Assembly (NCBI RefSeq): GCF_003019035.1
Contig: NZ_CP027447.1
DNA length: 64,000 bases
Origin: Escherichia coli
Lineage (GTDB): Bacteria; Pseudomonadota; Gammaproteobacteria; Enterobacterales; Enterobacteriaceae
Direction: 5' to 3' (one strand)
In this document: piece by piece, positions 4,466-9,543 of the stretch
Position numbering within the stretch: position 1 is the first letter of the stretch
Layout: each line of letters starts with the position of its first letter
Position numbers and translations under genes: made by a program
The notes under the pieces: model-generated
What the model saw: the letters and a program-made list of their open reading frames with translations, nothing else
Told to the model about the DNA's origin: nothing
The model's database searches: none

Positions 4466-6412
4466 TCAGCAGCGGCTTAAATCAGCCTGCGCCTGAGCCA
4501 GTTTTTCTGCCGCCTGACGTAGCGGCTCCATCAACGGCATGGTCCGTGCTGGAGCATGAAGGCGGAATCGCTGCAACTCTGTCGCACCGACAGTCAACGC
4601 CGATTCCAGCCGATGTCGTTTGGCGGCCATTTTAGTCAGTACCGCTTGTCTGTCTGCTGGCGTTACCGCTTCATTCGGCCTGAACACAAAACGGCGTTCG
4701 CAACTCGCTTTCCAGTCGATAACCGCCTGTGTCAGATGATCACCAAACCCTTTCACTTGCTTAACGCCACGACGGGTAACATCTGCGGCGGTTTCAATAC
4801 CAAAAGACCGTAACGCCGCTTTACGCGCTGGGCCTACGCCGGGAATAGAGGCAGCATCGATAAAAAATCCCTCCAGAAACTTCTGCTTCTGCCGTTCCCT
4901 TGCGTTGTCCTGAAGTGCTGCCAGAGCGCGTTTCTCCTCTTCCGGTAACCCAAGAATTTCGTCCTTCATTTTTTCGAGCATCGTCCGTTTGGCTATAAAA
5001 CCTTCCTGCCCGCCCAACTGTTGGATCTGGCTGACTAAATGGTCATAGTCCATTTTCGCGCGATTAAACGCCTCACGGCGTTGCTGGATTTCTGCTTTGT
5101 ACGCTTTGCTTGTCAGGCTGCCAATAATCCAGATAGCCGACAGCACAGGAACCAAAATAATATAACGTGGTTCTGTCTGAAGGCCGCAAAGCAACAGCGA
5201 TAACGCTGACAGTGCGATCTCAATCAGAATGATGTATTCACGCCGTAACAGGCCTAAAGGAAGCGGCCTGCCAGTCGGTTGGAAATGATCGGGTAATGGC
5301 AGTTGCAATGCTGGCGGTGCTACTGACGCCATCACCATCGCCCAGACTTTCGCCAGCACAAAATCACCGCTGGTGGTAATGACCTCTTCGCCGAGATCAA
5401 TAAAATAGATAACGCCTTGATTATCCAGAGCACACCACGGGCAGTCAGCCAAATGACCGGGATAAACATGCATTGCCGAAACGGTACATTTCTTTAACTG
5501 TTGGCGTAGTAAATCAAGTGCCGCTACCCACGCTTTTGCCGTCGGACGCCCGGTTGCCACGCCACTTTCCGTGAATGCCTGCTGAAACATGGCTTCAACA
5601 TCGCCCGGTAACATCGACAGCGGAATAGATCGTGGCGGCGGTTTTAAACCACGTCGCTGATTATCTGACGCGTAGGCATAACGGAAATGGGCAATATCCG
5701 TCTCCAGTGCATTACCCGCATCAGAGACAAGCGGTACACCGGAATAAGGATGCCGCCCACCAAACAAGACGTGAAAAATCAGCAACGCAAGGCCAAAATT
5801 ATCGTGATTCGCGGTGCGTTCAAAGCCAACAAATGACGACAAGGTTTGCAGCTCTGGCGACGTAAAATGCGACACGCCCACTTCGCATAAATGCAGCGTT
5901 CCATTGGCGTTAATCTGAAAGGAGTCGCTATCAATCAACACCACTTTGCTGTCACGGCCTACCATAAAGCTGTTCTGGTTTACGTCACCCACGACGTGCC
6001 CGTGCTCGTGAACCGTAGCAAAAGATGAAGCAATATTGCGCGCAACATAGAGGAGAAAATCCCACGCACAATGAGGGTAACTCTGACGACGATGTGCCGG
6101 GCTATAGATCATATGAATCGGTTCTTTACCTGAAACCTTCGGCATCATAAAACCGATAACCTTTCCGCCTCGTCCACCGTGAAGCGTTGCCTGCGGCCAG
6201 GCGACATAATTCAACAACTGCGCGTCAGCTGTCGCAGCCATAAAGGCAAGTTTGTCCTGTTTTAAGGCGGGTGGCGGCGTGTGATAAATCTTGGCGACGC
6301 TATCGGCAAACTCCTCGATATCATAAACCGCACCTTCACCGCCTTTGCCCAGTTCACGGCCGAGAGTGGTCAATTCACCTGTCGATGTAAATACTTTTAT
6401 ATTTGTCTTCAT
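4466..6412 (-). CDS. yegI: Atypical Ser/Thr protein kinase-like protein YegI
   Basis: 648-aa ORF. N-terminus has a kinase-like Gly-rich loop (GKGGEGAVYDI), a catalytic-loop-like HGHVVGDVNQNSF and LIDSDS. The middle is hydrophobic and predicted membrane-spanning; the C-terminal domain follows. Confidence 0.85.
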   Translation of the reverse strand: MKTNIKVFTSTGELTTLGRELGKGGEGAVYDIEEFADSVAKIYHTPPPALKQDKLAFMAATADAQLLNYVAWPQATLHGGRGGKVIGFMMPKVSGKEPIHMIYSPAHRRQSYPHCAWDFLLYVARNIASSFATVHEHGHVVGDVNQNSFMVGRDSKVVLIDSDSFQINANGTLHLCEVGVSHFTSPELQTLSSFVGFERTANHDNFGLALLIFHVLFGGRHPYSGVPLVSDAGNALETDIAHFRYAYASDNQRRGLKPPPRSIPLSMLPGDVEAMFQQAFTESGVATGRPTAKAWVAALDLLRQQLKKCTVSAMHVYPGHLADCPWCALDNQGVIYFIDLGEEVITTSGDFVLAKVWAMVMASVAPPALQLPLPDHFQPTGRPLPLGLLRREYIILIEIALSALSLLLCGLQTEPRYIILVPVLSAIWIIGSLTSKAYKAEIQQRREAFNRAKMDYDHLVSQIQQLGGQEGFIAKRTMLEKMKDEILGLPEEEKRALAALQDNARERQKQKFLEGFFIDAASIPGVGPARKAALRSFGIETAADVTRRGVKQVKGFGDHLTQAVIDWKASCERRFVFRPNEAVTPADRQAVLTKMAAKRHRLESALTVGATELQRFRLHAPARTMPLMEPLRQAAEKLAQAQADLSRC

Positions 6413-6612
6413 AATGTTTCAAGGGCAGTCATATTATATTTCAATGAATAATAACACTTCCCATTATAATTATTTCTATATTGGAAGAGTCCAACTCAAG
6501 AATAAAAATGATAATGCAATTTCATCAGGATACAATTCAATTCCAACCTGATAATGATTCACTTCCACAGGTTTTTTGCTAACTTTTACTACACAGGGAT
6601 TCTGGAGAAAAA

Positions 6613-7074
6613 ATGAAAAAGATATTACTTATGTTGAGTCTGCTATTTTTTACTACCGCAAGCTATTGTGAGATTTCGGATACGTTAGTGACAGGAGGTT
6701 ATGATAAAAAGGCGATGTCTGACGCGATTAAACATGCGCGGAAAGAAACCGATCAATTCATCGAAGTTATGAATAAAAAAGATGCTGATACTTTCGCGGT
6801 CAAAGCCCCGATAACCGATCGCGGAGAAACCGAGCATTTCTGGCTCACGGATGTCACTTATTCTAACGGCATGTTTATTGGTATAATAAGCAATGACCCT
6901 GGTATTGTTACAAACGTAGAATATGGCCAGGAGTGGAAAATCAAGAAAGAAGATATTTCAGACTGGATGTATACGCGCGGGGATAAAATTTACGGTGGTT
7001 ATACCATTGATCCTTTATTGGTCACCTATCCAAAAGAAGAAGCCGACGAGCTAAGAGCAAAATTAGTTCGCTAG
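6613..7074 (+). CDS. yegJ: Secreted protein of unknown function YegJ
   Basis: 153-aa ORF with an N-terminal signal peptide (MKKILLMLSLLFFTTASYC). The gene and flanking spacers are visibly AT-rich; an AGGAG-like RBS lies upstream. Confidence 0.8.
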   Translation: MKKILLMLSLLFFTTASYCEISDTLVTGGYDKKAMSDAIKHARKETDQFIEVMNKKDADTFAVKAPITDRGETEHFWLTDVTYSNGMFIGIISNDPGIVTNVEYGQEWKIKKEDISDWMYTRGDKIYGGYTIDPLLVTYPKEEADELRAKLVR

Positions 7075-7101
7075 CCAGCCATTATATTGATTGCTTAAAC
7101 T

Positions 7102-7129
7102 GGCGGTTGAACCGTTGTATTCAACCGCC
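7102..7129. terminator. Bidirectional hairpin terminator between convergent yegJ and pphC
   Basis: Perfect 10-bp inverted repeat GGCGGTTGAA / TTCAACCGCC with an 8-nt loop, seen directly. Confidence 0.6.
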
Positions 7130-7138
7130 ATGCGATGT

Positions 7139-7900
7139 TCATTCTGTCCACATAGCCAGTGCTAACGTTTTATCATCATCGGTACGCTCGTTTACCGCTG
7201 GGCTGGACAAAAACTGCTTTAACAATTCAGGTAATAAATCGAGTTGTTCCTGCGTTGCTGACGCCAGTCCATTGAAAAACGGGGTAAAGAAAGGCACATG
7301 CGGAGAATTATCCAGCATATTTAACGCCAGTCTCTGAATACCATCCGTAAATGCTGCAACTCTATGCGCACGCTCAGTGCTGGTGAAAGTTTCCAGTCTG
7401 AAAACGGCATCTTCATCGGTAATGAAATGCGTCATGTTGGCATATTCACCCACCATCGGCGTGAGAGGCAATTGCAGACCGTGACCCAAATCTACCACCA
7501 CGCCGCCATCGCCAATCTGCATAATCAAGGTGCCGTCAGGCGATGAAATCAGTCCCAGAAATGTGCAGGCAAAATCGCGAACCGCTAATTCTTTGGCTTC
7601 CGCCTCGGCAAAAAGTCGCTGACGAACGGTCAGCACAATATCCGTTGCGAGGACATCATTAAGCCCCAATTCCCCGCCCTGCACTTTTTGCATCATATAA
7701 GCCATCGCTTCATTGACGGCAAGCGTCGCACCTTCGCCACCCTGCGAAACGCTGCCTGCGCCATCAGCGACAAATACCGTCAATAATGGCTGCTGGTCTT
7801 CTAGCCAGGCAACCTGCATCTGGCAGGCATCCTGGCAAGGCAAGTCCGCGCTGATGTGCGACGTTCCAACGGTTGATGCATAGACCAGACGCCAGCTCAC
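7139..7900 (-). CDS. pphC: PP2C-family Ser/Thr protein phosphatase PphC (YegK)
   Basis: 253-aa ORF. Start overlaps the yegL stop by 4 nt, indicating translational coupling. PP2C-like Asp/Gly-rich motifs ([16 protein letters not shown]). Confidence 0.85.
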
Positions 7901-8556
7901 ACTGACGTCCAGCCTTTTGGCGCTTCCAGCACAACTTCCGTTCCCGGCGTGGAGCGGGAAACCGAACGCAGCGAACTGGATAACCAGCTAAATAGTTCGC
8001 GGAATTGTAATCCTTGAAGAGGCAAAGGCTGACGAACGCTGATTTGGGCCAGCGTCTTCATATCCGCCCCCTGAACACCGATGGAAAAGAAGGCAAACTT
8101 CTTATCTTCTTCCCCCTGAAACACCTTGTTGGCAGCAGCCTGCCACTCATCGGTTGGTGCGCCATCGGTAATCAGGAAAATCCACGGACGATAATAGGAA
8201 ATACCATTGGCGCGATACTCACGTTTGCGCTCCTCAACCATATTCAGGGCTTTGGTAATGGCGGCGCCCATTGGTGTATCCCCATGGGCAAACAGGATGG
8301 GCGGGAAAAAATTAGCGGCGCTGGTAAAGGGTTGTTCCACATGCACTGGGCCGAACGTCACAATACCGAGTTCCACTCTTTTTAAGGCCAGCGGGTCGGC
8401 AAGCAGCTCATCGCGAAAGGTAACCAATCCGGCGTTAAGTTCATTAATGGGTCTACCGTTCATAGAACCAGAAACATCCAGCAGCAAAATGCAGGGGCAA
8501 CGTGGTTCCGGGTTACTGGCAAAATCGCTGGTGGCAAACGTGATTTGTTCGCTCAT
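7897..8556 (-). CDS. yegL: von Willebrand factor A domain protein YegL
   Basis: 219-aa ORF with a MIDAS DxSxS motif ([11 protein letters not shown]) and a downstream ITDGAPTD motif typical of vWA domains. Confidence 0.85.
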
Positions 8557-8737
8557 AAGAAATCCTTTCTTAGAGAATTATTGAGGTCCGGTATCATACC
8601 GATTGCAATAATGAAATAAGAGCAAACGAAGAAACTTTCAGAATTAGGCCCGGCGGCGCAGAAAATTTTGCTATTCGCCTCGCAAGAACGGAGAGCCGTC
8701 GATTGACACTAAGGGCGGAGTGACATAATTTCAGGAG

Positions 8738-8886
8738 TGAGGGTTAGGGAGAGGTTTCCCCCTCCCCCTGGTGTTCTTAGTAAGCCTGGAAGCTAATCAC
8801 TAAGAGTATCACCAGTATGATGACGTGCTTCATCATAACCCTTTCCTTATTAAAAGCCCTCTTCTCCGGGAGAGGGTTTCCCGTTT
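8738..8886 (+). ncRNA. sibA: Sib antitoxin sRNA, unit 1 (SibA-like); ends approximate
   Basis: Sigma70-like promoter TTGACA(8703-8708)-N17-TAATTT(8726-8731); the transcript is fully antisense to ibs unit 1; hairpin at about 8856-8877 followed by TTTCCCGTTT. Confidence 0.65.
8777..8836 (-). CDS. ibsA: Ibs type I toxin, 19 aa (MMKHVIILVILLVISFQAY)
   Basis: Hand translation of the minus strand; it is a hydrophobic peptide that matches my memory of IbsA. Confidence 0.8.
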   Translation of the reverse strand: MMKHVIILVILLVISFQAY

Positions 8887-9072
8887 CAGCGTCCCGCTGA
8901 AATCGTCGGCTTACCTCCTTTCGCCCTGAATGCAGTCTATCGCTAACGCGTGAACAAAATAGTTTCCTCTGTGATTATTCCGTAACGACTCGCAAAGAAT
9001 ATTTGCTGGCAGGATCGCAGACTACAAAGCCTGCGGATTGACAATCTTATCGTGAAGGCATAATTTCAGGAG

Positions 9073-9216
9073 TGAGGGTAGAGCGGGGTTTCCCCCGCCC
9101 TGGTAGTCTTAGTAAGCGGGGAAGCTTATGACTAAGAGCACCACGATGATGAGTATCTTCATCATGACCCTTTCCTTATTTATGGCCCCTTCCTCGGGAG
9201 GGGCTTTCCCGTTTCA
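9073..9216 (+). ncRNA. sibB: Sib antitoxin sRNA, unit 2 (SibB-like); ends approximate
   Basis: Promoter TTGACA-N17-TAATTT(9061-9066), antisense to ibs unit 2, GC hairpin at about 9184-9204 plus T-rich tail. Confidence 0.65.
9109..9165 (-). CDS. ibsB: Ibs type I toxin, 18 aa (MMKILIIVVLLVISFPAY)
   Basis: Hand translation of the minus strand; IbsB-like. Confidence 0.75.
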   Translation of the reverse strand: MMKILIIVVLLVISFPAY

Positions 9217-9400
9217 GCGTCCCGCTGAAATCGTCGGCTTACCTCCTTCTGTCCTGTATGCAGTCTATCGCTGACTTGCGGATAAAATAGTTTCCAATGT
9301 GATTATTGCGTAACGTCTCGCAAAGAATATTTGCTGGCAGGATCGCAGACTGCAAAGCCTGCAGATTGACAATATTATCGTGAAGGCATACTTTCAGGAG

Positions 9401-9543
9401 TGAGGGTAGAGCGGGGTTTCCCCCGCCCTGGTAGTCTTAGTAAGCCGGGAAGCTTATGACTAAGAGCACCACGATGATGATCCACTTCATCATGACCCTT
9501 TCCTTATTTAAGGCCCCTTCCTCGGGAGGGGCTTTCCCGTTTC
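9401..9543 (+). ncRNA. Sib antitoxin sRNA, unit 3 (additional copy); ends approximate
   Basis: Promoter TTGACA-N17-TACTTT(9389-9394), antisense to ibs unit 3, GC hairpin at about 9512-9532 plus T-rich tail. Confidence 0.6.
9437..9493 (-). CDS. Ibs type I toxin, 18 aa (MMKWIIIVVLLVISFPAY), third copy
   Basis: Hand translation of the minus strand; IbsB-like variant with W at position 4. Confidence 0.7.
   Translation of the reverse strand: MMKWIIIVVLLVISFPAY

Follow-up and report, generated by a model that had tools for sequence, protein, structure and literature searches.

An ancient vWA-phosphatase-kinase operon of probable TerY-P kind in Escherichia coli, and its disruption by a yegJ-bearing insertion

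In Escherichia coli, the genes yegL, pphC (yegK) and yegI encode a vWA protein, a PP2C phosphatase and a membrane Ser/Thr kinase, respectively. Drawing on a 64,000-nucleotide stretch of an E. coli chromosome (NCBI RefSeq assembly GCF_003019035.1, contig NZ_CP027447.1), referred to here as the window, and on homologous loci throughout the bacteria, this report finds that the three genes are one ancient, horizontally spread operon, and that yegJ, which lies among them in the window, is the passenger of a later insertion unrelated to the triad. Sequence comparisons further place the trio, very probably and as a variant, within the TerY-P kind, and it is regarded here, with modest confidence, as a conflict module that moves horizontally and, most probably, acts on its own against phages or other mobile DNA.

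Introduction

Very few Ser/Thr kinase-phosphatase pairs are known in E. coli, and YegI with PphC is one of them. In vitro, PphC has PP2C activity and removes phosphate from YegI (Rajagopalan, Nagle and Dworkin, 10.1101/303594). YegI, in which VGD and DSD replace HRD and DFG, is an active Mn/Mg-dependent Ser kinase in vitro; it follows second-order kinetics in phosphorylating serines of its own activation loop, and PhoA-LacZ fusions give it a two-pass, N-in/C-in topology (10.1101/819920). A first-pass annotation of the window, made from the letters and a list of open reading frames (ORFs), had put both activities down as shown in vitro, in agreement with these papers. Expression of yegI was seen only weakly, in stationary phase (10.1101/819920), and mutations in the gene recur in long-term evolution lines (10.1101/303594). 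Overproduction of YegI slows growth (PMC6116040), and an overexpression screen recorded increased DNA damage upon overproduction of YegI and of YegL (10.1101/354589). The in vitro activities and the presence-or-absence polymorphism of yegJ are already in the literature; new here are the identification of yegJ as a passenger, the co-conservation of the trio, its placement among TerY-P systems and the distinctive build of its kinase. That placement, which brings in the neglected YegL, makes the question of their role directly testable, and the family concerned, of over 3,200 clusters, escapes the hidden Markov models (HMMs) now used to find defence systems. Moreover, since the allele found in K-12 is a disrupted one, what holds negatively for K-12 may not hold for other strains.

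An operon inherited as a unit

The four ORFs at issue, yegI, yegJ, pphC and yegL, stand exactly where the first-pass annotation had put them (Table 1). That annotation had proposed a eukaryote-like phospho-signalling module clustered around yegJ, reminiscent of modules predicted to sense threats or to act in conflicts, and the two halves of this proposal fare differently. A co-inherited module of the kind envisaged is supported by collinearity among homologous loci and by homology to TerY-P triads, but yegJ is not its centre: the trio occupies one fixed locus in 5,392 of 5,426 complete E. coli genomes (99.4 %), versus 1,898 of the same 5,426 (approximately 35 %) for the 726 bp interval that holds yegJ. 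In the window, the stop of yegL shares four nucleotides (GTGA) with the GTG start of pphC (TCA GTG TGA / GTG AGC), a translational coupling that had been observed, and yegI follows on the same strand at a distance that had been given as 0.7 kb and amounts to those 726 bp.

Beyond E. coli, one genome per species was scanned for 100,044 species, with a YegI alignment as the query, and 67 loci were recovered. They span Escherichia, Klebsiella, many Burkholderiales, Pseudomonas, Chromatium, Desulfocapsa, Planctomycetota, Acidobacteriota, Cyanobacteria, one actinobacterium, Flavobacteriales, Myxococcota, Lentisphaerae and Verrucomicrobia. Sixty-three of the loci have enough upstream sequence to be informative, and in 60 of these the genes for YegL, PphC and YegI are adjacent, in that order and on a single strand; the other three comprise a kinase that stands alone, one rearranged locus and one that is interrupted. 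Co-conservation across genera, which the first-pass annotation had named as a check on its proposal, therefore holds over some ten phyla. An exhaustive HMMER search brought the family to 3,202 YegI clusters at 50 % identity (E<=1e-30), most of which share an architecture of about 646 aa. The same operon arrangement was called in Klebsiella, Piscinibacter and Chromobacterium, whose YegI homologues are 56-62 % identical to that of E. coli; since the E. coli protein is about 60 % identical to those of Piscinibacter and Chromobacterium, horizontal transfer is indicated. The family is also carried on megaplasmids of Pseudomonas, Cupriavidus and Ralstonia. A phage collection yielded three weak YegL-like metagenomic matches alone, which argues that the trio is not phage-borne.

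The trio genes are under purifying selection and are not decaying. Within Escherichia, the ratio of nonsynonymous to synonymous substitution (dN/dS) is 0.03-0.04 for yegL, approximately 0.15 for pphC and 0.155 for yegI (overall range, 0.03-0.16), and the median identity to the E. coli protein across phyla is 66 % for YegL, 46.5 % for PphC and 41 % for YegI. Unusual divergence or diversifying selection at the locus was considered and rejected, given that identity to other genomes is 90-97 % compared with approximately 96-97 % for mdtB, a modest excess of divergence in a strain that is itself divergent, and that dN/dS is purifying. The trio is nevertheless dispensable, since E. coli 19-5 has lost all of yegI-pphC-yegL and keeps a 108-nt remnant of the 3' end of yegI beside yegD (L003 8001-8108). 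The kinase gene is broken into two ORFs in three homologous loci (L009, L010, L029), which belong to two species representatives of Escherichia and to an Accumulibacter metagenome-assembled genome; a frameshift, a stop codon or faulty assembly could be the cause, and the split hints at occasional inactivation of the kinase alone.

These data bear on the main rival to a conflict role, namely that the trio is an endogenous Ser/Thr signalling device for stationary-phase, envelope or DNA-associated stress, in which host proteins would be phosphorylated by YegI and reset by PphC, and YegL would serve as the scaffold, with no part in defence against phages or mobile DNA. We regard this as possible, though rather unlikely. 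Its appeal lies chiefly in the fixed, core-like position of the locus in E. coli and in the conservation of YegL, which is as constrained as the neighbouring yegD and whose identity across phyla suggests a conserved cellular partner; the weak expression of yegI in stationary phase alone, the recurrent yegI mutations in long-term evolution lines and the location of some homologues among housekeeping genes point the same way. What speaks against it is the patchy, non-vertical spread of the family (67 matches among the 100,044 species representatives, with the E. coli kinase 60 % identical to those of Burkholderiales), its presence on conjugative megaplasmids, the clean loss in at least one strain, the homology to the TerY-P triad, and the repeated adjacency to Gabija, CBASS, restriction-modification (RM) and Abi genes that is detailed below.

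Homology to TerY-P triads

The TerY-P triad brings together a vWA protein resembling TerY, a PP2C, and a Ser/Thr kinase to which a zinc ribbon is fused (PMC11090510), and was described in ter clusters by Anantharaman, Iyer & Aravind in 2012, as cited in that article. Variants whose kinase bears an OB fold are anti-phage according to Gao et al. 2020, as related in PMC11090510 and PMC7699616, the latter of which gives TerY-P systems as active against T7-like phages. The Pseudomonas aeruginosa TerY-P system protects against Autographiviridae, with most infected cells surviving (Sci Adv 2024, PMC10889362). In the present work, sequences were compared with the triad of the IncHI2 plasmid R478, and the systems of Gao et al. 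and of P. aeruginosa were compared by description.

A tblastn search with YegL led to IncHI2 plasmid genes annotated as VWA or TerY-C metal-binding, and on R478 the genes run in the order vWA, PP2C, kinase. YegL is 31 % identical to the R478 TerY over 181 aa (E 9e-27). PphC matches the R478 PP2C at E 6e-6 by BLASTP, and the PphC family profile does so with an hhalign probability of 98.2 % (E 2.8e-14, 184 columns). YegI matches the R478 kinase at E 1e-7 by BLASTP across the C-lobe and the Cys motif, its cysteines falling on the C..C...CPYC motif of the plasmid protein. In a joint alignment of the YegI family and the R478 kinase, the catalytic Asp, a DxD motif (DSD in YegI, DVD in R478), RHP..G and the cysteines C309, C324 and C327 are invariant; what the literature describes as motifs missing from YegI is therefore a family trait of TerY-P kinases.

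The trio thus combines a TerY-like vWA protein with an intact metal-ion-dependent adhesion site (MIDAS), a homologous PP2C, a kinase that sequence and modelling suggest is followed by a zinc ribbon, and the cassette order vWA-PP2C-kinase, which in the window is interrupted between the PP2C and the kinase. On this footing, its membership of the TerY-P kind is very probable. However, YegI fits neither the OB-fold type of TerY-P kinase nor the type that ends in a zinc ribbon and is associated with CoCoNuT (as defined in PMC11090510), and, because PADLOC models miss PphC and barely register YegL, the trio is filed as a divergent TerY-P variant rather than as a callable member.

The build of the three proteins

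The kinase domain of YegI lacks the canonical HRD and DFG motifs, has VGD and DSD instead, and has no Pkinase match in Pfam or NCBIfam, Pfam offering just a weak HHH_5. Its fold is nonetheless predicted to be that of a protein kinase: the AlphaFold2 (AF2) model of residues 1-345 (pLDDT 95.8, pTM 0.93) matched PknB, PknA and BRAF in Foldseek with probability 1.0 and a target-normalized TM score of approximately 0.7. K41 is nearly invariant (>=90 %) and D143 is invariant. After the kinase domain comes a putative zinc-ribbon-like element, modelled as a beta-hairpin and then a helix (residues 306-331), in which C309, C324 and C327 are invariant across a set of 54 sequences that takes in the R478 kinase, with H315 conserved in at least 90 %. 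A hairpin that is hydrophobic in all homologues, although its sequence is not conserved, would anchor the protein in the inner membrane, and YegI has no periplasmic sensor domain. The remainder of the protein (AF2 model of residues 436-648, pLDDT 92.6) is predicted to consist of two long helical arms that flank a compact helix-hairpin-helix (HhH) region. Taken together, the models depict YegI as a membrane-anchored kinase with a stalk of approximately 10 nm that presents a domain of DNA-binding type, which may bind DNA.

YegL bears the MIDAS sequence DVSGS, noted in the first-pass annotation, at residues 27-31, and the MIDAS positions D27, S29, S31, T94 and D131 are kept in at least 95 % of 64 sequences, as are 78 residues of the protein in all. 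A C-terminal Ser-rich segment (W191-S202) is also conserved and is a plausible phospho-acceptor. PphC has invariant residues at D24 and D46-G-A-G-S as well as in GDG, TDG and TDDDK. In Pfam, PphC is assigned to PP2C_2 (PF13672, E 1e-50), YegL to VWA (E 1e-9) and YegJ to DUF2314 (PF10077, E 3e-25); an NCBIfam scan of the four proteins provided no usable family assignment, and sequence searches of the PDB with the four gave marginal matches alone (E 0.03 or worse) and no informative relatives.

Table 1. Coordinates, in the window, of the trio genes, the parts of YegI, the inserted segment and the adjoining Sib RNAs
Feature	Position	Strand	Description
yegI	4466-6412	-	membrane Ser/Thr kinase of 648 aa; ancestrally third in the operon
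YegI C-terminal cytoplasmic module	4472-5098	-	predicted antiparallel coiled-coil stalk, aa 439-515 and 585-647
YegI (HhH)2 domain	4688-4867	-	aa 516-575, predicted at the tip of the stalk
YegI transmembrane hairpin	5114-5236	-	aa 393-411 and 417-433, loop of ~5 residues
YegI zinc-ribbon-like element	5408-5503	-	aa 304-335; C309, H315, C324, C327
YegI kinase domain	5504-6412	-	aa 1-303; K41, catalytic VGD143VNQNS loop, D161-S-D163 for DFG
AT-rich replacement segment	6362-7147		786 bp, 37.5 % GC; splits the operon; outside the triad; from alignment with the KOr019 allele
yegJ	6613-7074	+	153-aa DUF2314 protein with N-terminal export signal; passenger of the insertion
pphC (yegK)	7139-7900	-	253-aa minimal PP2C phosphatase; GTG start
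yegL	7897-8556	-	219-aa TerY-like vWA protein; first gene of the operon
Sib RNA	8703-8851	+	Rfam RF00113
Sib RNA	9038-9180	+	Rfam RF00113
Sib RNA	9366-9508	+	Rfam RF00113

Genomic context of the homologues

The surroundings of the homologous operons are often rich in defence genes, an observation that is qualitative and made without a matched background rate. In P. alcaligenes (L035 4224-21402), a compact defence island contains Gabija (GajB, GajA; E ~1e-215), then the trio, a MotB/ZorB-like gene, a CBASS cyclase (E 1e-128) and an IetS-like gene. Elsewhere, the trio lies near type I RM and Mrr (a metagenomic contig), near AbiH, a KAP NTPase and Tn7 genes (Chromobacterium), near an SLFN-type helicase, MazG-like, McrA-like, BrxR and JetB genes (Piscinibacter), and near GmrSD, type I RM and SymE (K. 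spallanzanii); PDC-S36 stands beside one trio and a type II methyltransferase beside another, and HsdM is within 10 kb in six further loci. Two other gene associations were seen. In the Piscinibacter group (L012, L013, L026, L044, L079), a gene for a secreted SNase-like protein is located directly upstream of the vWA gene, and in Noviherbaspirillum (L028 12453-19462), two ORFs of 1,052 and 1,284 aa with no PADLOC match lie directly downstream of the triad.

In ten YegI-type loci (L018, L028, L030, L064, L068, L079 and others), membrane proteins of the DUF4236 family are encoded upstream of the vWA gene. Such proteins, which have a conserved C-terminal motif, WKY.N..G.PDRRFK, are also encoded beside TerW/TerY on R478 (L075 4814-6022), and they are a possible accessory component. 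The DUF4236 proteins, which accompany both the R478 ter cluster and these loci, together with the homology of YegL to the TerY of that cluster, also lend something to the idea that the trio is a Ter-type sensor of metal or tellurite stress, in which the vWA metal site would sense a metal or metalloid and phosphorylation would switch a resistance response; a metal-sensing phospho-switch is a published hypothesis cited in PMC11090510. We consider such a function very unlikely for the trio. Neither E. coli nor any of the homologous loci inspected has TerD, TerZ, TerB, TerC or TerW next to the trio, YegL has no TerY-C metal-binding extension (219 aa versus 346 aa), and the neighbouring genes are those of defence rather than of metal resistance.

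The chromosomal setting in E. coli

RefSeq annotation of strain SCU-301, which is 100 % identical, uses the same gene names, and the region belongs to the E. coli chromosome. The locus is flanked by alkA and yegD on one side and by three ibs/Sib repeats and mdtABC on the other. Adjoining yegL, the three tandem Sib RNAs (141-150 bits) are placed opposite three ibs toxin ORFs; the number of Sib/ibs repeats varies by strain, with three here, five in KOr019 and two in 19-5. In a strain identical to the window, RefSeq annotates mdtC (~14142 onward) as frameshifted. A promoter and terminator scan of 6300-8900 returned counts no better than those of shuffled sequence.

yegJ and the AT-rich replacement

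When aligned with the allele of strain KOr019, which does not have yegJ, the window has the 786-bp segment in place of 50 bp at the pphC/yegI junction; the segment has 37.5 % GC compared with 51.9 % for the trio. The AT-richness that the first-pass annotation had attributed to the yegJ region is plain to see, GC being 34-43 % over 6300-7200 against approximately 51-57 % in the trio. From the segment come codons 1-17 of yegI, the final two codons of pphC, a divergent intergenic region of 200 bp, and yegJ. In KOr019, no gap separates yegL, pphC and yegI, and each gene overlaps the next by 4 nt. Because E. whittamii and another Escherichia lineage also carry the contiguous operon, that form is ancestral, and because the yegJ segment is lineage-specific and absent from non-Escherichia trio loci, the 0.7-kb separation of yegI is a derived disruption of the operon. 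That yegJ separates pphC from yegI in K strains, and not in B strains or O157, had already been noted by Rajagopalan and Dworkin (10.1101/303594, 10.1101/819920).

The signal peptide that the first-pass annotation had ascribed to YegJ is plausible as an export signal, with an N-terminus that reads MKKILLMLSLLFFTTASYC. Homologues elsewhere, outside the enterics, are proteins of approximately 155 aa with lipoboxes, and on these sequence features the YegJ family is an exported one. A 2026 study reports that YegJ binds the N-terminal half of RNase E and that its overproduction damages the membrane and induces yegD. The signal peptide and the lipobox-bearing homologues sit oddly with the role of a cytoplasmic RNase E partner, and an exported YegJ would fit the undetectable N-terminal tag and the envelope stress on overproduction in the same report.

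PMC13232886 offers the speculation, also implicit in the picture of a cluster centred on yegJ, that YegJ is a functional fourth component, which would make a four-gene system in K-12-type strains. The position of yegJ between yegI and pphC, as well as the induction of the neighbouring yegD and the membrane damage upon its overexpression, could be read in that way, yet the idea is highly improbable and, on the distribution of yegJ, a partnership with the trio was rejected. Approximately 65 % of the E. coli genomes that keep the trio lack the gene, as do the other species of Escherichia and every one of the 60 collinear loci elsewhere; among the 63 informative loci, it is found in none outside Escherichia, which alone has trio loci with YegJ or YegD. 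Its base composition is foreign, and its product is an exported DUF2314 protein as opposed to the cytoplasmic and inner-membrane members of the trio. Furthermore, in Superficieibacter the same chromosomal gap contains yegJ and no trio, and yegJ without the trio is also present on a metagenome contig. We conclude that yegJ is a passenger of a later insertion and is unrelated to the triad.

In Superficieibacter electus (L081 4453-11261), yegJ comes right after yegD on the same strand, within the alkA-yegD...mdtA gap, and is followed by SUKH, Tli3, Tle3_C and Imm52-type genes, i.e. genes of the type VI secretion system-immunity type. Within the Enterobacteriaceae, conflict genes appear to have a hotspot in the yegD-mdtA gap.

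A model for the trio, and its weighing

A conflict role for the trio, with defence against phages or mobile DNA as its most likely form, is suggested by the operon structure, the co-conservation, the TerY-P homology, the constraint on the genes, their mobility, the defence-island context of homologues, the predicted structures and the toxicity of overproduction; argued from sequence and analysis in this manner, it is the reading to which we incline. According to the model that we propose, YegI would be held in the inner membrane by its hairpin and would project the (HhH)2 tip of its stalk into the cytoplasm. In uninfected cells, PphC would hold YegI unphosphorylated and the kinase off. The trigger might be DNA at the membrane, such as an entering phage genome, engaged by the HhH tip, or else a ligand or a change at the MIDAS of YegL. 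Either would cluster YegI and so bring about its trans-autophosphorylation, a step with which the second-order kinetics of YegI are consistent. YegL, through its MIDAS and Ser-rich tail, may be a phospho-regulated adaptor, sensor or gate, and active YegI would be the effector, phosphorylating host or phage proteins. The yegJ insertion would uncouple the expression of yegI from that of yegL-pphC in some 35 % of E. coli, including K-12.

Two elaborations of this scheme are put forward more tentatively. One is that the (HhH)2-tipped coiled-coil antenna of this membrane-anchored kinase detects DNA as it enters at the inner membrane, which we rate as possible, though rather unlikely. The other, rated alike, builds on such an antenna and holds that nearly every E. 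coli carries a silent, hitherto unrecognized TerY-P immunity branch with the highly conserved vWA protein and the PP2C as its gate, K-12-type strains being natural operon-split variants; if so, the splitting of the operon in K-12 would explain the absence of expression and phenotype in the standard laboratory strain.

Several points weigh against a defence role. A near-universal, fixed locus in E. coli (5,392/5,426) is atypical for defence systems, and the 66 % identity of YegL across phyla fits a conserved cellular partner better than it fits fast-evolving phage proteins. Apart from the Ibs/Sib repeats, the neighbours of the E. coli trio are not defence genes, so that the locus is not a classical defence island, and some homologues have housekeeping genes around them or are without PADLOC neighbours. 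B strains, whose operon is intact, support good growth of T7. Against PADLOC-DB v2, YegL matches the TerY model at E 0.019 and PphC matches none even at E<=10, and YegI has weak matches to PD-T4-6 and MkoA kinases and to nothing else. No transcription, and no robust expression, was detected under any of the laboratory conditions tried (10.1101/303594, 10.1101/819920), and a literature search found no phage or plasmid challenge of the trio. Finally, three elements of the model are inferred, namely DNA binding by the HhH module, the part played by YegL and the kinase substrates.

Comparison with known systems

With the TerY-P triad of R478, the trio shares the three protein families and their order, DxD in place of DFG, the zinc ribbon predicted after the kinase domain, and the association with DUF4236. 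It differs in that YegL is without the TerY-C extension, in that PphC is without the N-terminal region of approximately 270 aa of the R478 phosphatase, and in that the R478 kinase ends in a beta-rich soluble domain whereas YegI is predicted to end in a transmembrane hairpin, a coiled-coil stalk and (HhH)2; in addition, there are no ter genes near the trio, and the identities are 23-31 %. The systems of Gao et al. and of P. aeruginosa are, like the trio and its homologues, stand-alone vWA/PP2C/kinase cassettes of defence islands whose kinase has a C-terminal domain of nucleic-acid-binding type. However, their kinases end in an OB fold and YegI in a membrane anchor with an HhH-tipped stalk; theirs are experimentally anti-phage, the YegI type being likened to them by sequence and context, and the PADLOC models for them miss the E. 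coli proteins. Among kinase-based defence systems more broadly (Stk2, PD-T4-6), the likeness is the weak PADLOC match of YegI to the PD-T4-6 kinase. As for the Hanks-type kinase/PP2C pairs, such as PknB-PstP and PrkC-PrpC, YegI has in common with them the predicted bilobal kinase fold, which is nearest to those of PknB and BRAF, but it lacks HRD, DFG, a Pfam Pkinase match and an extracellular sensor of the PASTA type, and for YegI the vWA partner is obligatory.

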